A DNA stretch of 39,948 nucleotides from Escherichia phage TM1. Below the pieces are notes generated by a model. The model saw only the letters and a list, made by a program, of their open reading frames with translations, did no database searches and was not told where the DNA came from. The stretch lies in the sequence record OM908436.1; one strand, written 5' to 3'. Every line of letters starts with the position of its first letter. Positions within the stretch are counted from its first letter, which is position 1. Shown in pieces: positions 128 to 39,948 of the stretch. The translations under genes were made by a program, and so were the position numbers.

Positions 128-2492
128 TAATGCCTGACTCCTGCTTGTGCTTGTCCAGCTCTTTCTTCGTGCCTTTGTTGACTGTAGGCTGAAGGTTGAA
201 TGACCCTAAGAACATCAGGTTCAGACGAGTGGTATCCTTCTTGCGGTATTCCTGCCAGACCGGGAAACCATCAGGTGTTACCCAGTGTACCGGAAGGCAT
301 GGCTTCAGGATTTCACCAGTCTTCTTGTCCTTCACTTCAGCAGCCAGCAGCTTGGCAGCACCTTGAAGCCACTTCATCGCGTCAACCGCAGCAACTACGG
401 TCACACTCACAGCTTCCCAAATCATCTTAGCCATGAATCGAGACGCTTGGCTTGGCTCGGTGAACATAGCGCCAGACCCTGAGTCAATCGCTGGCATCAC
501 GATATCCTCGTAAACTTGGTCTGCGAATCCGTACTCTTTCGACCCGTATGCCAGAGTCATGACTGAACGCTTAGTGACCTTGCGTGACATACCATATGTC
601 AGCCACTGACGGGCCAGCTCTCGTGTCCCCAGCTTGATACGTTCGGTAATCTCACCAGTTTTCTTGTCCTCGTGAGTGACCATCTCGTTGTCAGTACCGT
701 TAATCAGCAGGACTTTAAGCTCCTCCTCAATGCGGTCAGACACGATTCGGTAGATGTCTTGGACCTTACCGGATGGCGTCAGGTTTACTGCATGTCCACC
801 GATGTGGTCACGAAGCATCGCGCTGAAGTGCTGAATCCCAGAGCAGGACCCATCGAACGCTACCGGTAGCGAGCAGGAGTACGACAGGCCGTGGTGCATT
901 ACGCCAGCATACTCGAAGCAGAACGCAAGGAAGCAGAACGGAGAGTCTAACTTGCCCCACCACTCAATGCTATCCATTGGTGCTTTAGCCGCAGTCATGA
1001 TGTTGTCGTGGTTGTCTTCAACCCACTTGATGCGCTCCTCGAAGGTGACTTTATCGACACCCGCACAGTTTGCACCGTGGACCTTCAGCCACTTGAAACC
1101 ATCAGCGCCAATAGGCTTGCCGACTGCCAGAGTAAGGAGACCTTTCTGCATGTCGTTGCCTTGAGGGTTGAACATCGGCACAGCGTAGACTCGACCGCGC
1201 CAGTCCATGTTGTACGGAAACCAGATGGCCTTGAACTGAGAGAACTTGTTCGCTTGGTTAACGATAAAGCTCAGTGACAATCTACGTGACTGCCGGGCCT
1301 TCTCTCGGCGGTAGATACCAGCAGCAGCCTTCTTCCATGCCTTGAGTTCTTCTTCAGTCTCACCCGCATAGTCCTCAGGCTTCAGTGGCTCCATCTGAGG
1401 GATATCATCAATAGGCGTGTTGTTCAACTTCTCGACCATGTTTACCACGTCCAGCACCTTCTTGTTCACTTTCCACGGTGTATTCTGGATGATATTCACA
1501 GCGTCATAGACTTCAGGCATGTACACGTCTTCGTAACGTGCTACCGCAGACTTAGACCCTAAGCGAATCAGTGGCAATGGTCTTCGACCTTTGGCCCAAT
1601 ACCCACCGCCTACGACACCAGTCCACGGCTTTGGTGGAACGACGCAAGGCTGATAGACTGGCGCAATACCCGCGAGGCTGAATCCGCGTTGTGCCATCTT
1701 CTTGACCCAGAAGTCTGACAGGTGGACCATCTCAACGTCAGCCGCCGCATTGCCAGCACCGTAACGCTTAAGCTCGACCAGTTGTGTAGACTGGATGACA
1801 ATCTCAAGCATCTTGATGCCAACGTGTACCGCTTCGGTCGGACTCCAAGTACCCCACGCATCTTCCAGCTGACCTTGCTCAAGCATGGAGGTCTCAACCG
1901 CTTGCATGTAGGCTTTCTTGTAGGATACCCCTGCTCGCTTGTTCAGGTTCTCAGCTATCGCCTTCTTGAAATGCTCCTTCTCCTGATCACGGATGCGACC
2001 GAAGCGGATTTCATCCTCAAGTGTGCGACCTATCGCTGAGGCCATCGGTGTAATCGGGATCCCTTCAGGCTTGACCAGCTTGGAGAGGATGACCTTCAGT
2101 ATGATAACCGCAGCAGACTCACATGAGATGCGCAGAGAGCGGTCCTTGACGGCCTTCTCTTCAGTGCTCAACATGGTGAACGCCACGCTAGGACGAGAGG
2201 TTGACAGCTTCCCGTCTGGCCCTTCATGCCACTCCTTGACGGCTTGCGCAATCTTAGGGACCAGAGTCTGCATCAAAGGCTTGGCGACCTGATTGTCTGC
2301 CAGTTCCCCGCGCTCAGTCTGGCGCTCAAGGTTCTTGATGAAACGTCGCTCGCCTTCAGTGTATGCCTCGTGCTCAAGCTGAAGCTGTTTGACTGCAAGG
2401 TCTTGCCCGTAGTGGTCAGCCAGCAGGTTAAACGGCTCAATGGCGTTCGACACATCAGAGAAGTCGTGTTTTTCAATAGAGATGACGCTCAT
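1..2492 (-). CDS. gp1: T7-type single-subunit DNA-directed RNA polymerase, N-terminal and central part (start codon 2490-2492; continues across the window edge into 39632-39948)
   Basis: Reverse translation from 2492 gives MSVISIEKHDFSDV..., matching the T7 RNAP N-terminus MNTINIAKNDFSDIELAAIPFNTLADHYG; frame is continuous with the C-terminal piece through the 127-bp overlap (about 893 aa in total). Confidence 0.9.
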   Translation of the reverse strand, partial: MSVISIEKHDFSDVSNAIEPFNLLADHYGQDLAVKQLQLEHEAYTEGERRFIKNLERQTERGELADNQVAKPLMQTLVPKIAQAVKEWHEGPDGKLSTSRPSVAFTMLSTEEKAVKDRSLRISCESAAVIILKVILSKLVKPEGIPITPMASAIGRTLEDEIRFGRIRDQEKEHFKKAIAENLNKRAGVSYKKAYMQAVETSMLEQGQLEDAWGTWSPTEAVHVGIKMLEIVIQSTQLVELKRYGAGNAAADVEMVHLSDFWVKKMAQRGFSLAGIAPVYQPCVVPPKPWTGVVGGGYWAKGRRPLPLIRLGSKSAVARYEDVYMPEVYDAVNIIQNTPWKVNKKVLDVVNMVEKLNNTPIDDIPQMEPLKPEDYAGETEEELKAWKKAAAGIYRREKARQSRRLSLSFIVNQANKFSQFKAIWFPYNMDWRGRVYAVPMFNPQGNDMQKGLLTLAVGKPIGADGFKWLKVHGANCAGVDKVTFEERIKWVEDNHDNIMTAAKAPMDSIEWWGKLDSPFCFLAFCFEYAGVMHHGLSYSCSLPVAFDGSCSGIQHFSAMLRDHIGGHAVNLTPSGKVQDIYRIVSDRIEEELKVLLINGTDNEMVTHEDKKTGEITERIKLGTRELARQWLTYGMSRKVTKRSVMTLAYGSKEYGFADQVYEDIVMPAIDSGSGAMFTEPSQASRFMAKMIWEAVSVTVVAAVDAMKWLQGAAKLLAAEVKDKKTGEILKPCLPVHWVTPDGFPVWQEYRKKDTTRLNLMFLGSFNLQPTVNKGTKKELDKHKQESGISPNFVHSQDGSHLRKTVVHTHRKYGVMSFAVIHDSFGTIPAD

Positions 2493-2561
2493 ACTTAAAG
2501 TCCTTGTTATTAGTCTTTCACTTAAAGTCTCTTTGGTCTTTCACTTGGAGTCTTAGACCTT

Positions 2562-2584
2562 GAGTCCTATAGTGATAGTTAAGT
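2562..2584 (-). promoter_or_regulatory. Phage-RNAP promoter-like sequence immediately upstream of the RNAP gene (ACTTAACTATCACTATA/GGACTC)
   Basis: Matches the phage promoter consensus at -13 to +2; initially transcribed region deviates (GGACTC instead of GGGAGA). Confidence 0.5.
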
Positions 2585-2589
2585 CATAA

Positions 2590-2982
2590 TTACTTGCATA
2601 TCAGAGGGGTAGCGTGAAGATGACTGAAGTCACCGTGAGTCGTGTGCTTGATGGTTGACCGTTGGTCTATCGCCTTCCAGCCTGAGACCAGAAGTTTACC
2701 ATCGTCAGTGATTGGTCGTCCCCCATACGCCAGACACATCAGTTCGGACTTATGGCCCTCGGCCTGGAGTCGTGCCTGAAGTACACGGTCTCGCTCCTGC
2801 TGTTGACGCTTAGTGTGTGATGAGTGGCGGTGTACATAAGCGCTCTTTCTCCCGGTCTTCTCCCAATAGTTGCGACCACGCGAATCCTTTCCAACATACT
2901 TCCACTCTACTCCGTTCTTATCAGTGAATTTGCGAAACGCTAGGGTTGAGTCCATTGCGTGTACCAGATTTGACATATTCAT
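2590..2982 (-). CDS. Early hypothetical protein (130 aa)
   Basis: ORF directly upstream of the RNAP gene in the early region; start overlaps the stop of the upstream ORF (ATGA); no recognisable motif. Confidence 0.5.
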   Translation of the reverse strand: MNMSNLVHAMDSTLAFRKFTDKNGVEWKYVGKDSRGRNYWEKTGRKSAYVHRHSSHTKRQQQERDRVLQARLQAEGHKSELMCLAYGGRPITDDGKLLVSGWKAIDQRSTIKHTTHGDFSHLHATPLICK

Positions 2983-3179
2983 TACAGTTTGCTCCCAAGA
3001 GTTGCTATATCCCAGACGTTCGCTAAATTACGCGCGAATCGCCCGTTAGGTTGGCGTACAGTCCAGCGGCCCAGACGTGCATAGTTGAATTTATAGACTT
3101 TACGTGCCTTGTTGATGTCTCTCATCAGCATGTAGGCGATAAGTCCATAGCCTATGGCTATCAATAGTTCGATACTCAT
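2982..3179 (-). CDS. Early small hydrophobic protein (65 aa), probable single transmembrane helix
   Basis: Hydrophobic N-terminus LLIAIGYGLIAYML; coupled to the downstream ORF. Confidence 0.4.
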   Translation of the reverse strand: MSIELLIAIGYGLIAYMLMRDINKARKVYKFNYARLGRWTVRQPNGRFARNLANVWDIATLGSKL

Positions 3180-3284
3180 AGTGATTTCCGTTTAATACAA
3201 TCGTATATCCCATAACCTATCATCCAGATAACTGGCGCTAGGCATACCAAATATCCCACACTCATAGTTAACTCCTATTAATGC

Positions 3285-3340
3285 AAGTGGTAATCTTTGA
3301 GGCCACCTATCAGTCGATGACCTCTCGTTTATCACTTAGC
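3285..3340 (-). promoter_or_regulatory. Conserved early intergenic RNA hairpin element, copy D (candidate RNase III processing site)
   Basis: Shares the AGGCCACC...GATGACCT core and flanks with copy C; the stem closes with G-U pairs only in the minus-strand transcript. Confidence 0.45.
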
Positions 3341-3354
3341 TAGGCCACGCATGG

Positions 3355-3702
3355 TTACACTTCCACCGATACAGTGGTCATCTTGCTTACAGTCAGCCCA
3401 CCAGCAAGCTCAACCGCATAGCGTATCGCCTCCTCTTTGGATTTGAAGTCCTTTCCTGCAAGGTGGTAAATATCGCCTGTTATTACCTTAGAAGGCCTGC
3501 GACTCACCGCAATAGCGTTTTCCATGGCAAGCTCACCACGGCTATACTGAGTAAGCCAGCGCTTCACCGAACTCGTTCCCACCCCGAACTTTTGGGCGGT
3601 TGCAGTCACCCTATCCATAACTCCCTCAGGCAGAGAGGTGTAGTAGTTAACAACGTTGAGTTTAAATGCTACCGAGAATACATTGCGAGTTTTAGCAGTC
3701 AT
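3355..3702 (-). CDS. Early hypothetical protein (115 aa) with a possible helix-turn-helix segment
   Basis: ORF in the early region; the segment ATAQKFGVGTSSVKRWL resembles an HTH; no T7 counterpart recalled. Confidence 0.5.
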   Translation of the reverse strand: MTAKTRNVFSVAFKLNVVNYYTSLPEGVMDRVTATAQKFGVGTSSVKRWLTQYSRGELAMENAIAVSRRPSKVITGDIYHLAGKDFKSKEEAIRYAVELAGGLTVSKMTTVSVEV

Positions 3703-3725
3703 TATTCTTTCCTTCTGTAGGTGTT

Positions 3726-3776
3726 AAGTGGTAATCACTCAGGCCACCATGTAGATGACCTGTAGTTTAACACTCA
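3726..3776 (-). promoter_or_regulatory. Conserved early intergenic RNA hairpin element, copy C (candidate RNase III site)
   Basis: Transcript AGGUCAUC-loop-GGUGGCCU gives an 8-bp stem with two G-U pairs; flanked by the conserved CTGTAGTTTAACACT block. Confidence 0.45.
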
Positions 3777-4059
3777 GTATCCACCTGTCAGCGTTATGGT
3801 CAAGCTATGGTGATTAGCCACGTAGCAAGCCCCGCGCTTCATCATCTCGTAGCAACCATCGTAGAACGCCTGTTCACTGCTATAAGTTATCTGGTACATG
3901 TTTACTTGTCCTCAGCGTGTAAGCTGTCATACATGCGCTTACGACCCTCATAGACCGCTTTCAGGTGGCGCATAGCCTCATAGTGGTTTAACCGCCCGGT
4001 CTTGACCATAATCCGGGCGTTGGTGACATGGTGCTGGCAGAGACCATAAGTTACCATCA

Positions 4060-4404
4060 CTAGCAGTCCTCCTCTTCGTCTGCCTCTTCAGCCTCAAACC
4101 ATACCACATCACGGCTATTAGACACGTCGTTATAAAGTGCCTCATAGATACGAGCTTGCAGTATACGCGTCACATCCTTGGTCTCAGGCATCAGCCCAGA
4201 GTCTTCGAACTCATGGTCAATACCATCAGCAGCCATCACCGTAAAAATCTCGTGGTAATAGTGCGGTACCTGACCATCTACTACCTCATGCAGCGCATCA
4301 TGATAATCATCGCCTTCAGCTATTTCGTCGCACTGAATACGCTCATTGAACAGCTCAACGGTTGCAGCCAGCAGCTCATAGTATGCGTTAGCGTTACGTT
4401 CCAT
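4060..4404 (-). CDS. ocr: Ocr-like anti-restriction DNA-mimic protein (T7 gp0.3 homolog)
   Basis: 114 aa, acidic; [50 protein letters not shown] aligns with T7 Ocr [50 protein letters not shown]; acidic C-terminal tail. Confidence 0.88.
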
Positions 4405-4433
4405 AGTTATATCCTCTCAAAGTTAAGTATGTG

Positions 4434-4485
4434 TTAGTGACTATCATTCAGGCCGCTAGAAGCTAACGACCTGTAGTTAATCACT
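4434..4485 (-). promoter_or_regulatory. Conserved early intergenic RNA hairpin element, copy A (candidate RNase III site)
   Basis: TTAGTGACTATCATTCAGGCC...GACCTGTAGTTAATCACT, same architecture as copy B. Confidence 0.45.
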
Positions 4486-4762
4486 AGTAGGCTACATCTT
4501 TAAGTGCATTCTTAAGCATGGTCTCTATGTGTGAATCCTTCACGTTAGCCATATATCCGCCTATCACTTGCACTTCTGCATTATTGCTGGCAATTATTTC
4601 CTGCGACTTTTTATGGCCCACTCCATGATAACAATCCCACATGAAGCGCTTGAACGTTAGACCATTCTCTTTGTAGCGCTCGGCTTCTTCCGCCACTCCA
4701 CGTAATAATCTTGATTCTAACTCCTTGCGGAAGGCGTCTGCTGTAGCTTTGTTCAGTCTCAT
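4484..4762 (-). CDS. First early gene, hypothetical protein (92 aa)
   Basis: ORF with Shine-Dalgarno TAAGGA 6 nt upstream of the ATG; first ORF downstream of the sigma70-like promoter and leader; no recognisable motif. Confidence 0.5.
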   Translation of the reverse strand: MRLNKATADAFRKELESRLLRGVAEEAERYKENGLTFKRFMWDCYHGVGHKKSQEIIASNNAEVQVIGGYMANVKDSHIETMLKNALKDVAY

Positions 4763-4779
4763 AATGAATCCTTAGGTTG

Positions 4780-4862
4780 TTAGTGACTATCAGTCAGGGC
4801 CTTCAGTCGCTCAAGTCAAGCCCGTCTCGCGGTAGACTCAAAGACCCTGTAGTTAATCACTG
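4780..4862 (-). promoter_or_regulatory. Conserved early leader RNA hairpin element, copy B (candidate RNase III site)
   Basis: Contains the TTAGTGACTATCA and CCTGTAGTTAATCACT flank blocks shared with copy A. Confidence 0.4.
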
Positions 4863-4884
4863 TCGGCGCACATTAAGAGTTTAT

Positions 4885-4962
4885 CCAGATTGTTAAAGAG
4901 CGTTCGCGTTGGCTGTCGTCGCCGTGCTATCCCGTTTCAGTGTTGGGACTCACCGTTGTTTC
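4885..4962 (-). promoter_or_regulatory. Leader segment resembling the T7 R0.3 RNase III site region
   Basis: Transcript GAAACAACGGTGAGTCCCAACACTGAAACGGGA...CGCTCTTTAACAATCTGG closely resembles, from memory, T7 GAAACGACAGTGAGTCACCACACTGAAAGGTGA...CGCTCTTTAACAATCTGG. Confidence 0.5.
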
Positions 4963-4977
4963 GTGTTGATGTGGTGC

Positions 4978-5007
4978 ATACTACTTTAAGTCTGTACATC
5001 TTGTCAA
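4978..5007 (-). promoter_or_regulatory. Host sigma70-type early promoter (T7 A3-like): -35 TTGACA, -10 TAGTAT
   Basis: Transcript-strand ACAAAACGCTTGACAAGATGTACAGACTTAAAGTAGTAT parallels T7 A3 ACAAAACGGTTGACAACATGAAGTAAACACGGTACGAT (from memory). Confidence 0.55.
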
Positions 5008-5284
5008 GCGTTTTGTTTAGCCTGTTAACCTAAACCGTGAGCTATAGCCCCTCAGTGGGCGACCCGTTGCCTCCTCTAGCTCTCCACCTCAGTGGTAGAC
5101 TTGGCGAGCTGGTCAGGCTCTCGTTAGGTTGTAGGACCTTTCCGACCTGCTGAAGTGGGAGCCTCCAGCGACCCTACTGCTTTCTGTCATCTGCCTGTTG
5201 TTCGTATGACTTATCAGGCTGTCTACTTAACCGGGATGACCCGGCGTCTTCACTATCCGGTGTTTGCCGTGTCGTGTTGACGGA

Positions 5285-5320
5285 AGCTATTAGGCCATAG
5301 TCTAGACCTATAGTCAATAT
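5285..5320 (-). promoter_or_regulatory. Possible second host-type early promoter (A1-like; -35 TTGACT, weak -10 CCTAAT)
   Basis: TTGACT followed by a 17-nt spacer and CCTAAT on the transcript strand; weak -10, so tentative. Confidence 0.3.
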
Positions 5321-5429
5321 GTAATTTGAAATAATATTGATTAAGCTATCGTCGGCCCCATAGTGACTAAGAGGATATAGTCTTTGACTAACATGTCTTA
5401 GACCTTAAGTCTATAGCCATTGTGTCTAT

Positions 5430-5780
5430 TAACTGTAGGTTTAGACTGTAGGTAGCGGCAGTACCGATGGTCGATGACTGTAGGTAGTTAGACTGTAGGT
5501 AGTGACTCAAGGTCTGATACAGATGGAGACTCAGAGGCAGACCCATAGTCCCTACCTATCGTCTCCACCTCCAGCCATAGCCGATACCTATCGTTGACCT
5601 GAAGTCTTGACCATCGGTCCAGCCTTATGATAGACTGGGGTAGGGCCTTTGGTCTGGACTTAAAGAGGGCCTATGGGGAGACTTGAGGTTCTTGAACTGT
5701 GAGATGTGGTCTCAAACTTTTGGTCCAAAACTCATCGAAGACTGTAGGTGGCAGCTACTGTAGGTCAAGGACCGTAGGTC
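5430..5780. repeat. Candidate genome termini / concatemer junction: two arrays of ACTGTAGGT-type short repeats flanking a roughly 240-bp segment that may be the collapsed direct terminal repeat
   Basis: ACTGTAGGT at about 5432, 5445, 5477, 5492 and again at 5741, 5757, 5771 (one ACCGTAGGT variant); no ORFs; sits between gene 19 and the early promoters, like the CCTAAAG repeat arrays beside the T7 terminal repeat. Confidence 0.45.
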
Positions 5781-5939
5781 AGGCGACACTAGGATAGACC
5801 AATAAGTAGGATGACCCTAAGTGAGCTTCTATTAAGGTGTTACCTAAAGTCCTTGACTACAGTAGCTAAGGTCAGTAGAGTAGCGTAAGCTATGAACTGA
5901 CCTTAGGTCTTCCGCTCATGAATCGTTACCATGATTGCG

Positions 5940-6098
5940 TTAATTACACTGAGACACCAGAGAACATACGAGAGTCTCGACCCACCCGACCCACTGACTT
6001 CCAGCAGTAACGCCAGCAGTAAGTAGAACAGCAGCAAGAAACCTGTATGTAGCTCGATTGGTCGCCAGAGCTTTAAGTACAGCTTTGGTCTTTGCCAT
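5940..6098 (-). CDS. Small hydrophobic protein (52 aa) at the gene 19.5 position
   Basis: ATG preceded by AGGAGG at about 8 nt; MAKTKAVLKALATNRATYRFLAAVLLTAGV...; below the ORF-track size cutoff, hand-translated. Confidence 0.4.
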   Translation of the reverse strand: MAKTKAVLKALATNRATYRFLAAVLLTAGVTAGSQWVGWVETLVCSLVSQCN

Positions 6099-6278
6099 AT
6101 GCTACATACCTCCTGTATCTATGGTCGGTGACTATCTGTATTGGAGGGATTATGATTAATATCACCCTCCTTCCATCGGTGCAAGCCTTAGGTAAGAACT
6201 CGGAGTCTGCCTCCTAAGGTCTTGCATAAAGTCTGCATATGTATATTCACTACAGTAATACTATAAGTAACCGGGGGT

Positions 6279-6301
6279 CTTCCCTATAGTGATAGTTAAG
6301 T
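6279..6301 (-). promoter_or_regulatory. Phage-RNAP promoter downstream of terminase (phiOR-like)
   Basis: ACTTAACTATCACTATA/GGGAAG. Confidence 0.65.
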
Positions 6302-8605: not shown

Positions 8606-8667
8606 AGTTGCCCTCCCGGTTTATCAGATTTCACGTAGAGTCGCCTCCACTAGTTAGTGTTAACCAT

Positions 8668-8702
8668 AAAGGCCACTACATATAGTAATGACCTTGAGTC
8701 TA
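8668..8702 (-). promoter_or_regulatory. Conserved RNA hairpin between small terminase and spanin genes (candidate RNase III site, R18.5-like)
   Basis: CATAAAGGCCACT-N10-ATGACCTTGAGTCTA; transcript forms an 11-bp stem with two G-U pairs; two near-identical copies at about 31972 and 38797. Confidence 0.55.
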
Positions 8703-8706
8703 ACAC

Positions 8707-11250: not shown

Positions 11251-11273
11251 GTTTCCTATAGTGATAGTTTAGT
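11251..11273 (-). promoter_or_regulatory. Phage-RNAP promoter upstream of the tail fiber gene (phi17-like)
   Basis: ACTAAACTATCACTATA/GGAAAC; overlaps the gp16 stop codon. Confidence 0.7.
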
Positions 11274-23525: not shown

Positions 23526-23548
23526 TCTCCCTATAGTGATAGTTTAGT
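23526..23548 (-). promoter_or_regulatory. Phage-RNAP promoter upstream of the capsid gene (phi10-like); best consensus match
   Basis: ACTAAACTATCACTATA/GGGAGACC, about 115-nt leader to the gene 10 ATG. Confidence 0.85.
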
Positions 23549-31947: not shown

Positions 31948-31971
31948 GGTTAATCCTCCGTTTAGTCTAAT

Positions 31972-32008
31972 CATAAAGGCCACTCGCTGTGAATGACCTT
32001 GAGTCTAG
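31972..32008 (-). promoter_or_regulatory. Conserved RNA hairpin upstream of the DNA polymerase gene (candidate RNase III site, R4.7-like)
   Basis: CATAAAGGCCACT-N8-ATGACCTTGAGTCTA; compensatory changes relative to the copies at 8668 and 38797 preserve the stem. Confidence 0.55.
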
Positions 32009-32010
32009 AC

Positions 32011-34225: not shown

Positions 34226-34684
34226 TTAACCGTGGTCGGAAGTGAACAGTTCATTGGTAGACAGCCAGCGTTGCAAGTCGAAACTTGGACACGCCTTAGG
34301 TGCTACGTCATGGTGTGCTTTGATTTCTGCCTGAGGATACAAGGCTTTCAGGTCAGCTAGCTTGTTGCGCAGGGAGTTCATCTGGGCTGGAGTGAAGTTA
34401 GCTTCAAACTGACCCTTAGCGTTGATTCCGCCTACAAGGCAGACGCCTACGGACCGGGAGTTCCAGTCCTTAACGTGTGACCCTACGACATTTACCGGGC
34501 GACCCTCTTGCACAGTGCCATCTCGCCTGATGATAAAGTGATAGCCTACGTCCAGCCACCCCTGCTGCTTGTGCCACATGCGGATAGTGTCTACCCCGAT
34601 GTCCTGAGACGGTGGGGTAGCCGAACAGTGAACGAAGATAGCGTCAGTCCGGGACCGTGGGTTGAATTGCACCTTACTCACCAT
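34226..34684 (-). CDS. gp3.5: Lysozyme / N-acetylmuramoyl-L-alanine amidase (T7 gp3.5-like)
   Basis: 152 aa; TDAIFVHCSATPPSQ, WLDVGYHFIIRRDGTV, SVGVCLVGG, FEANFTPAQM and HHDVAPKACPSFDL match T7 lysozyme. Confidence 0.93.
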   Translation of the reverse strand: MVSKVQFNPRSRTDAIFVHCSATPPSQDIGVDTIRMWHKQQGWLDVGYHFIIRRDGTVQEGRPVNVVGSHVKDWNSRSVGVCLVGGINAKGQFEANFTPAQMNSLRNKLADLKALYPQAEIKAHHDVAPKACPSFDLQRWLSTNELFTSDHG

Positions 34685-36088: not shown

Positions 36089-36111
36089 CTGTCCTACAGT
36101 GATAGTTTAGG
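36089..36111 (-). promoter_or_regulatory. Phage-RNAP promoter (phi2.5-like), overlapping the gene 2 stop
   Basis: CCTAAACTATCACTGTA/GGACAG. Confidence 0.6.
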
Positions 36112-36265
36112 TCTCAGGACGAATCCGTCCGACCACAAACCCAGCGTCCTCATACTCTTGGGACTTCAGTGTAGCCTCTTCAAGAGACTTTGCGTACACC
36201 GGAATCTCGAAGGACTGAACGCGACCCTCAAGCTCCACGATGTACTTCTTCTCAACCTCAGTCAT
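36107..36265 (-). CDS. gp2: Host RNA polymerase inhibitor (T7 gp2-like), 52 aa
   Basis: [14 protein letters not shown]...[11 protein letters not shown] aligns with T7 gp2 SFEVPIYAETLDEA...PAGFEVTRVRP; hand-translated. Confidence 0.65.
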
Positions 36266-36448
36266 AAACCGCGCTCCTTCCATTGGTTGTATAACGTGAT
36301 GTAGTCCTGGTTGAGAGTCTTCTCATACATCTCCCGGCACCACTCACTTGGTTTTACCATATTCCACCTCTATCGCCCAATACATTAAACGGAATAATGC
36401 GCCTACTCCAGCACAGATTAATCCGAAGTACAGAATATCATTAAGCAT
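36262..36448 (-). CDS. Two tiny tandem ORFs (34 and 32 aa) at the gene 1.8 position
   Basis: 36344-36448 [34 protein letters not shown] (hydrophobic) and 36262-36360 [32 protein letters not shown]; overlapping stop/start arrangement; tentative. Confidence 0.25.
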
Positions 36449-38756: not shown

Positions 38757-38796
38757 GTGGTTAAATCTCCAGTAGTTTACGTTATGTTAGGGTTAA

Positions 38797-38837
38797 TCAT
38801 GAAGGCCACGACTTTTAGTCATGACCTTGAGTCTAAT
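38797..38837 (-). promoter_or_regulatory. Conserved RNA hairpin at +5 to +40 of the phi1.1-like transcript (candidate RNase III site, R1.1-like)
   Basis: CATGAAGGCCACG-N10-ATGACCTTGAGTCTA; 11-bp stem with two G-U pairs on the transcript strand. Confidence 0.55.
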
Positions 38838-38856
38838 CCTATAGTGATAGTTTAGA
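38834..38856 (-). promoter_or_regulatory. Phage-RNAP promoter (phi1.1-like)
   Basis: TCTAAACTATCACTATA/GGATTA; overlaps the stop of the 157-aa ORF. Confidence 0.65.
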
Positions 38857-39631: not shown

Positions 39632-39948
39632 TTAAGCGAATGCAAAGTCTGAAGACAAGATGTCTTCGATATTCAGTTTACCTTTCTTCGGAAGCTCAGG
39701 CAATTTGTCGCGCTGGCTCTCGTGGAGCTGGTATTCAAACTGCTCGTAGAAGTCAAGCAGCACATCGTTATCGCGGTAGGTCTCTACCATCGTCTCACGG
39801 ACGCCACGGAACAGATACTCAGCGTCAGCCGGGATGGTCCCGAAGCTATCGTGAATCACTGCGAATGACATCACGCCATATTTGCGGTGCGTGTGGACTA
39901 CAGTCTTGCGGAGGTGGCTACCATCTTGTGAGTGGACGAAGTTCGGGC
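39632..39948 (-). CDS. gp1: T7-type RNA polymerase, C-terminal part (stop codon 39632-39634); same gene as 1-2492
   Basis: HDSFGTIPADAEYLFRGVRETMVETY...LHESQRDKLPELPKKGKLNIEDILSSDFAFA matches the T7 RNAP C-terminus HDSFGTIPADAANLFKAVRETMVDTY...LRDILESDFAFA. Confidence 0.92.
   Translation of the reverse strand, partial: PNFVHSQDGSHLRKTVVHTHRKYGVMSFAVIHDSFGTIPADAEYLFRGVRETMVETYRDNDVLLDFYEQFEYQLHESQRDKLPELPKKGKLNIEDILSSDFAFA
39822..39948. repeat. Exact duplicate of window bases 1-127 (assembly overlap)
   Basis: See feature at 1-127. Confidence 0.8.

Follow-up and report, generated by a model that had tools for sequence, protein, structure and literature searches.

The window analysed here is the whole 39,948-nucleotide stretch of Escherichia phage TM1 DNA (sequence record OM908436.1). 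It is a complete, circularly permuted genome of a Kayfunavirus (K1F-like, T7 family) with a unique length of 39,821 bp. Its ends are identical over 127 nt, positions 39822-39948 being an assembly overlap that repeats 1-127, and its closest DNA matches are other Kayfunavirus (K1F-like) phages at ~93% identity. Because the circularly permuted contig was cut inside gene 1, this gene is split between the two window ends (Table 1), and the same cut accounts for the absence of the long RNA polymerase (RNAP) reading frame from a program-made list of open reading frames. Translation of the minus-strand frame gives a T7-RNAP-like N-terminus beginning MSVISIEKHDFSDVSNAIEPFNLLADHYG, and the product is 62% identical to T7 RNAP and 99% identical to K1F-type RNAPs.

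All genes lie on the minus strand. Around the site, terminase (gene 19, 8159-6396) is followed by a phiOR-type promoter and the genome ends, and then by the early genes and gene 1. Among the early-gene products are Ocr, a helix-turn-helix protein, a gp0.6-like protein and, last before gene 1, a gp0.38-like protein for which a Pfam search gave no match. The helix-turn-helix protein (115 aa, 3355-3702, minus strand) was recognized by its Pfam BrkDBD domain (E = 2e-5), with weaker matches to HTH_23 and HTH_28.

Table 1. Positions in the window of the genes, predicted promoters and leader elements discussed in the text.
Feature	Coordinates	Strand	Details and basis
Predicted phage-RNAP promoter before gene 1, −17 to +6	2562-2584	−	ACTTAACTATCACTATA followed by GGACTC; predicted +1 = 2567; sequence and leave-one-out position weight matrix (PWM)
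Leader (5'UTR) of the predicted phage-RNAP transcript	2493-2567	−	75 nt, 63% A+T, begins GACTCAAGGTC
Shine-Dalgarno-like AAGGA	2501-2505	−	8 nt before ATG
Predicted R1-like hairpin, complete only in read-through (host-RNAP) RNA	2514-2577	−	folding
Gene 1, T7-type single-subunit RNA polymerase, codons 1-830	1-2492	−	translation; ATG 2492-2490
Gene 1 remainder, last 63 codons and stop	39632-39821	−	893 aa in total
Upstream early gene, gp0.38-like, 130 aa	2590-2982	−	synteny with gp0.38 of EcoDS1 and CR8
gp2-type inhibitor of host RNA polymerase	36107-36283	−	Pfam RNA_pol_inhib, E = 8.6e-20
gp3.5-type amidase/lysozyme	34226-34684	−	Pfam Amidase_2, E = 1.9e-17
phiOR-equivalent promoter, between gene 19 and gene 19.5	6279-6301	−	+1 = 6284
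phi10-equivalent promoter	23526-23548	−	+1 = 23531; sole copy with GGGAGA start
First promoter after gene 1	38834-38856	−	+1 = 38839; followed by canonical T7-type RNase III-like hairpin, a promoter-plus-hairpin module like that predicted before gene 1
Remaining family promoters	+1 at 11256, 18970, 24528, 27348, 33974, 36094, 37170	−	

A sequence-only reading of this DNA had placed a phage-type promoter directly upstream of the polymerase gene, and the element is present as described. The reverse complement of 2562-2584 is ACTTAACTATCACTATAGGACTC; the strand, which that reading had omitted, is minus. The site sits in the 97 nt that separate early gene 0.38 from gene 1, its −17 position beginning 5 nt after the TAA stop codon of the gp0.38-like gene (2592-2590). 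The earlier estimate of about 70 nt to the RNAP start codon is fair for a leader of 75 nt, and the AAGGA that it had noted before the ATG lies at 2505-2501 on the same strand. Its consensus match from −13 to +2 proved to be an understatement, as agreement with the family consensus extends from −17 to +3, with the A/T-variable position −14 as the single exception; the recognition block (−12 to −5) and the TATAGG initiation block (−4 to +2) both fall within this match.

The promoter core AACTATCACTATAGG occurs eight times exactly and 11 times with at most three mismatches, always on the minus strand, where 0.9 occurrences are expected; all 11 promoters are thus oriented as the genes are. The 11 family sites score 31-38 bits, and no other position on either strand exceeds 12. 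When the gene 1 site was left out of the matrix, which then rested on the remaining ten, it still scored 32.2 bits. For the full 23-mer, zero matches are expected by chance, and a chance match was ruled out by shuffles together with the PWM. From −17 to +2 the gene 1 promoter is identical to the phiOR copy. It shares the gene-boundary placement, the coding-strand orientation and the position upstream of a ribosome-binding site that characterize K1F-type promoters. The sequence-only reading had also suggested that the GGACTC start might make the site weak. This concern did not survive comparison with the rest of the family: six of the 11 promoters start with GGA, and GGGAGA is found only before gene 10. 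By its sequence, the site looks like an ordinary class-II-type promoter. At the left end we also looked for phiOL as a further phage promoter; the weak look-alikes at 5308, 5358, 6346 (plus strand) and 6378 all scored below 12 bits and were rejected.

The site is kept in all 218 phage records that hold the region (retrieved with a 171-nt or a 51-nt query), which are essentially every record with an RNAP at least 80% identical to this one, and in 24 of the 24 Kayfunavirus and Caroctavirus sequences that we examined. In an alignment of 24 Kayfunavirus sequences, the promoter core is invariant except at −14, at −10/−9 where the Cronobacter GW1 lineage has switched, and at −2, where one subclade has a T>A change. 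The 8-nt spacer directly upstream of the promoter is freely variable in the same alignment. The subclade (five sequences) carries the −2 change, CACTAAAGG, at its gene 1 promoter only, and its leader is 6 nt longer and remodelled; the substitution may weaken the gene 1 promoter of these phages.

We then used a motif-free test on 80 IMG/VR loci with relatives of the polymerase, scoring any 18-mer within 300 nt upstream of gene 1 that recurs elsewhere in the locus. LUZ100 served as the positive control for this test. A recurring 18-mer was present in 21 of 21 loci with an RNAP at least 78% identical, which place +1 at −75 to −93, and in 0 of the ~55 T7-, T3-, K11- or KP32-like loci; within ~900 nt of gene 1, these ~55 loci held no cognate promoter. 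The positive loci represent three promoter types (in brief, AACTATCACT, AACCCTCACT and AGGTACACT), and the gene 1 site always matches the type of its own genome. The corresponding recognition sequences are CTWAACTATCACTATAGG in Kayfunavirus, TTAAACCCTCACTATAGG in the GW1 lineage and AAGGAAGGTACACTATAGG in CR8. The polymerases differ in step: in the specificity loop, at T7 positions 748 and 756, the K1F-type enzymes have N/N and the GW1 lineage D/R, and CR8 has K within a remodelled loop. The D/R pair is that of T3, whose promoter core GW1 now shares, and the K is that of K11. Temme et al. found that a T7 RNAP with the K1F specificity loop was active, and orthogonal, on a T7 promoter into which the K1F −12 to −7 block had been placed (PMC3458549). 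Since the site is rewritten whenever the specificity of the polymerase changes, it is under selection for being read by that polymerase; sequence alone can offer no stronger argument for activity.

The two sequences of the GW1 lineage are classed as Kayfunavirus, and all of their promoters read AAACCCTCACTATAGG, with a T3-like −13 to −3 block. The lineage therefore documents a promoter-specificity switch inside one genus and is a natural example of an N748D-type change.

Promoter-flanked modules recombine among T7-like phages, and the site could in principle be a functionless copy that arose by chance or was left behind by such an exchange. Nothing specific speaks for a relic of this kind. A relic would not be expected to persist in every one of the records and across genera or to be updated through two specificity switches, and the full-length match is not one that chance produces; conservation and co-variation effectively refute this explanation, and we give it a negligible probability.

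Annotation of the region is uneven. In the K1F record (NC_007456, 2208-2566) the gp0.38-like gene is unannotated and only its 3' part aligns, and promoter and leader are intact and identical to those of the window. Many automatically annotated Kayfunavirus records (13 entries) place a 'hypothetical protein' coding sequence under the promoter-region match, as opposed to the manually curated records of EcoDS1 and CR8, the only ones in which the promoter is marked.

Between the predicted start site and the gene, the path is free of obstacles of the kinds that we looked for. The stretch from +1 to the gene 1 ATG contains no terminator-like hairpin, and the 75-nt leader contains no T7 class II pause signal (ATCTGTT). 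From the left end to gene 1, no terminator-like hairpins were found where 2.8 are expected, so that none precedes gene 1 as one does in LUZ100. No promoter lies closer upstream of the RNAP reading frame than the cognate one, and no terminator comes between the two. Farther upstream, sigma-70-like consensus matches are found at the left end at 5007-4978 and 5768-5741 (minus strand), and the EcoDS1 record annotates three host promoters at its left end. At the ribosome-binding site, GGACTTTAAGTATG is invariant in 24 of 24 aligned Kayfunavirus sequences.

In T7, regions that combine a promoter with A+T-rich DNA (phi1.1A/B, phiOL) serve as replication origins. The promoter before gene 1 could likewise fire mainly for another job, either to prime replication or to act as an early entry point for genome uptake and transcription in place of phiOL. 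The A+T-richness of the leader would suit a role in replication. Moreover, T7-, T3- and K11-like phages have a phiOL-type promoter, and in the 11 Kayfunavirus contigs that start at the left end we found no phiOL-type cognate promoter from there to gene 1. In the Kayfunavirus clade, phiOL might be functionally replaced by the promoter before gene 1. Against such a job as the main one, the invariant ribosome-binding site and gene 1 follow directly, so that any transcript started here would be a gene 1 mRNA. We consider a primary role in replication or entry improbable, and it would in any case be compatible with autoregulation.

T7 has an R1-type RNase III processing hairpin upstream of gene 1, and the sequence before gene 1 was also considered as RNA. 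A read-through RNA covering −12 to +62 is predicted to fold into a two-stem hairpin of −17.4 kcal/mol (z = −2.4; equalled by 4 of 200 shuffles). The T7-type hairpin found at this position is similar in shape (−22.9 kcal/mol, z = −2.05). The RNA that begins at +1 reaches −9.6 kcal/mol (z = −0.3), and it cannot form the lower stem because promoter positions −8 to +6 constitute the 5' arm of that stem. Neither an 83-nt RNA starting at +1 nor the 191-nt context folded better than shuffled sequences. RNAalifold on eight diverse leaders gave −6.2 kcal/mol with no compensatory pairs. An Rfam scan of 2300-3100 returned only a sub-threshold snoRNA match (21.8 bits against a gathering score of 54, E = 0.55), which was discarded.

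The 11-mer that opens the leader, GACUCAAGGUC, has 16 matches in the genome with at most one mismatch, where ~1 is expected. As GACTCAAGGTC, it forms the 5' arm of three strong coding-strand hairpins, UAGACUCAAGGUCAU...GUGGCCUUUAUGAUUA, near 38833, 32005 and 8700. These RNase III-like hairpins (38790-38835, 31960-32010 and 8650-8705, minus strand) have z-scores down to −4.1. The same 11-mer occurs in a T7-like locus at positions that we take to be R0.5, R1.1 and R1.3. Exact copies are found on the plus strand of the window as well, at 5504, 25821 and 37679. When the conserved arm motifs CUCAAGGUC...GUGGCCUUUAUGAUU are taken as the standard, the gene 1 leader has the 5'-arm 11-mer exactly, and its 3' arm reads AGACCAAAGAG as against the canonical GUGGCCUU at the three hairpins. 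In the −2 T>A subclade, the changed promoter bases are fully complementary to the 3' arm CUUUAGUG (CTTTAGTGAT), and the lower stem is perfect.

These observations bear on the proposal that the sequence is conserved mainly as RNA, namely as the 5' arm of an R1-type RNase III hairpin in host-RNAP transcripts, with the likeness to a promoter secondary or little used. The T7-like shape and energy of the −12 to +62 fold, the exact arm motif at the start of the leader and the perfect lower stem of the subclade speak for such a role, and given the overlap of promoter and hairpin, conservation at −8 to +6 could partly serve RNA structure. Positions −17 to −9 lie outside the stem or at its edge; they are conserved too, and in GW1 and CR8 they switch as the other promoters of those genomes do. 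The hairpin cannot explain this conservation and switching and so does not displace the promoter. The lack of compensatory pairs and the weak consensus energy also count against an RNA role as the principal one, as does CR8, which has a different local fold before gene 1. We judge it quite unlikely that RNA structure is the main reason for conservation, and we treat an RNase III hairpin before gene 1 as a hypothesis, suggested by folding, rather than a finding.

The most interesting residue of the analysis is a possible polymerase-dependent difference in the gene 1 5'UTR. If the promoter does lie inside the 5' arm of an R1-type hairpin, then gene 1 mRNA made by host RNAP would carry the full processing hairpin, and mRNA made by the phage enzyme from G2567 would do without the lower stem. 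Which polymerase had made the RNAP message would then determine its 5'UTR structure and its processing, and perhaps how well it is translated or how stable it is. Linked to this switch is the thought that a self-promoter is the older T7-like state; the T7/T3/K11 layout, with the 0.7 kinase adjoining gene 1 and phiOL far upstream, would in that case be derived. We regard this pair of ideas as speculative and rather doubtful.

A neighbour-joining tree of the RNAPs (300 bootstraps) groups the promoter-less T7/T3/K11/Berlin clade at 100%, Kayfunavirus with Caroctavirus at 100%, and Ghunavirus with Troedvirus at 98%. Its deep nodes have 54-76% support, and three gains or three losses of the promoter are equally parsimonious. 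The kinase gene is distributed in the opposite way to the promoter, a correlation that covers a handful of genomes (eight). No kinase is annotated beside gene 1 in the promoter-bearing lineages (Kayfuna-, Carocta-, Ghuna- and Troedvirus and LUZ100), and the early region of the window (2590-6300) has no reading frame big enough for a gp0.7-type protein kinase. The promoter-less Berlinvirus and Aarhusvirus have the kinase directly upstream of gene 1, as T7 does, and VP4 has neither.

The promoter before gene 1 of the window is a member of an 11-site family, lies at the boundary of the polymerase gene, is conserved, has changed together with the polymerase and opens onto a terminator-free path to the start codon. 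The feature is real and non-random, and it is very probably a functional promoter for the polymerase's own gene. Positive autoregulation is the natural inference from family, conservation, co-change with the specificity loop and the lack of a terminator before the ATG; the firing in vivo, its timing and its brake are likewise inferred. T7 itself manages much of its biology with no promoter of this kind, which we counted against the proposal. On balance, we give a probability of roughly three in four to a working class-II-type promoter for the phage's own RNAP that provides transient positive autoregulation. The literature that we searched contained no transcript 5'-end, transcription start site (TSS), in vitro transcription, reporter or genetic data on the gene 1 promoter of K1F-like phages.

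Under the autoregulation proposal, host RNAP would start at the left-end promoters early in infection and read through into gene 1, as in T7. The first phage polymerases would then initiate at G2567 and produce a gene 1 mRNA that has a short leader and carries its own ribosome-binding site, so that the enzyme would amplify its own synthesis. The gp2-type inhibitor, once made, would stop transcription of gene 1 from host promoters, a role assigned to it from T7 biology, and self-transcription would continue after host RNAP had been blocked. In T7, the gp3.5 lysozyme preferentially silences weaker, class II promoters; by analogy with the inhibition of T7 RNAP by T7 lysozyme, the gp3.5 homologue would later damp the loop.

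In the textbook account of T7, the gene for the phage polymerase belongs to the early genes, whose transcription falls to the host enzyme. A clade of more than 200 sequenced coliphages together with Salmonella, Citrobacter and Enterobacter phages instead retains a self-promoter before gene 1. If this promoter is active, the supply of polymerase would be independent of host transcription after shut-off, and a positive-feedback step would be added to the early-to-middle switch. This is relevant to kinetic models of T7-like infection and to the engineering of K1F-type phages and K1F RNAP expression systems, in which an overlooked autogene would be leaky or toxic on cloning.

Comparison with known systems begins with T7 itself. 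The sequence-only reading held that T7 gene 1 is made only from host-RNAP promoters. This stands as far as the immediate surroundings of gene 1 are concerned, where no cognate promoter adjoins the gene. It does not stand for the early region as a whole: nearly all T7-, T3- and K11/KP32-like loci have a phiOL-type cognate promoter, on the same strand as gene 1 and 2.2-3.4 kb upstream of it, before the host promoters. In the T7-like early region a T7-type hairpin precedes gene 1, and one of similar shape is predicted in the window. The T7 class II modules (phi1.1A/R1.1 and phi1.3/R1.3) have the same succession as the window of promoter, CUCAAGGUC-type hairpin sequence and ribosome-binding site; they differ from the gene 1 leader, which has the 5'-arm motif only, a divergent 3' arm and a promoter that joins the lower stem. 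A synthetic T7 autogene, with gene 1 under a T7 promoter, was reportedly described by Dubendorff and Studier in 1991 and is said to give a feedback that needs a brake such as lysozyme. The autogene is an engineered plasmid, whereas the element in the window is natural, belongs to a lytic phage and has a non-consensus initially transcribed sequence.

Among phages outside the clade, our repeat test recovered a promoter ~60-120 nt before the RNAP gene in LUZ100, gh-1, phiPsa17 and phi15, and found no cognate promoter before the RNAP gene in SP6, VP4, Dickeya phage Luksen and a Berlinvirus. For gh-1 (phi1), phiPsa17 (Ghunavirus) and phi15 (Troedvirus), a cognate promoter ~100-120 nt before the RNAP gene is annotated or putative; all of these are predictions. 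The Ghunavirus consensus differs (TAAAAACCCTCACTRTGGC), and gh-1 has no early genes before gene 1. An experimental parallel is the Pseudomonas phage LUZ100, in which phi1 lies directly upstream of the RNAP gene and is supported by a TSS from ONT-cappable-seq (PMC10134795). In the model put forward for LUZ100, the first polymerase stems from read-through by host RNAP and then amplifies its own transcription (PMC10134795). Unlike the promoter in the window, LUZ100 phi1 stands behind a terminator, has a MarR regulator/integrase module beside it and has a proposed role in a lysis-lysogeny switch (PMC10134795); among the early reading frames scanned in the window there was no integrase-sized ORF and no MarR Pfam match. 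The helix-turn-helix protein encoded shortly upstream of the self-promoted RNAP gene of the window recalls the MarR regulator beside LUZ100 phi1; nothing ties it to the promoter.

Nearer relatives carry the element itself. CR8 (Caroctavirus, HG818824) has a 'predicted promoter' at 3356-3378 with the same gene 0.38/gene 1 placement and its own consensus, +1 being ~93 nt before the ATG; it differs in recognition sequence (AAGGAAGGTACACTATAGG), specificity loop and flanking RNA structure. A Kayfunavirus genome paper of 2026 reports eight CTWAACTATCACTATAGG repeats, including one at the 3' end of the gene that precedes the RNAP gene (PMC13298934). K1F has the identical sequence before gene 1 in a RefSeq record without promoter annotation. 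In EcoDS1 (EU734172), 'promoter phi' at 2244-2266 before gp1 is the identical 23-mer, with the same leader and at the same place after gene 0.38. The 11 annotated phage promoters of EcoDS1 match the 11 of the window one-to-one in order and spacing, and nine are identical in sequence. The EcoDS1 'promoter phi' is an annotation rather than an experiment, and at the sequence level it does not differ from the gene 1 site in the window. The gene 1 self-promoter is therefore already known: annotation of the identical element goes back to 2008 (EcoDS1) and that of equivalents to 2003, and the idea of feedback has been published for LUZ100. What is added here is comparative evidence that the site was kept functional through changes in promoter specificity.
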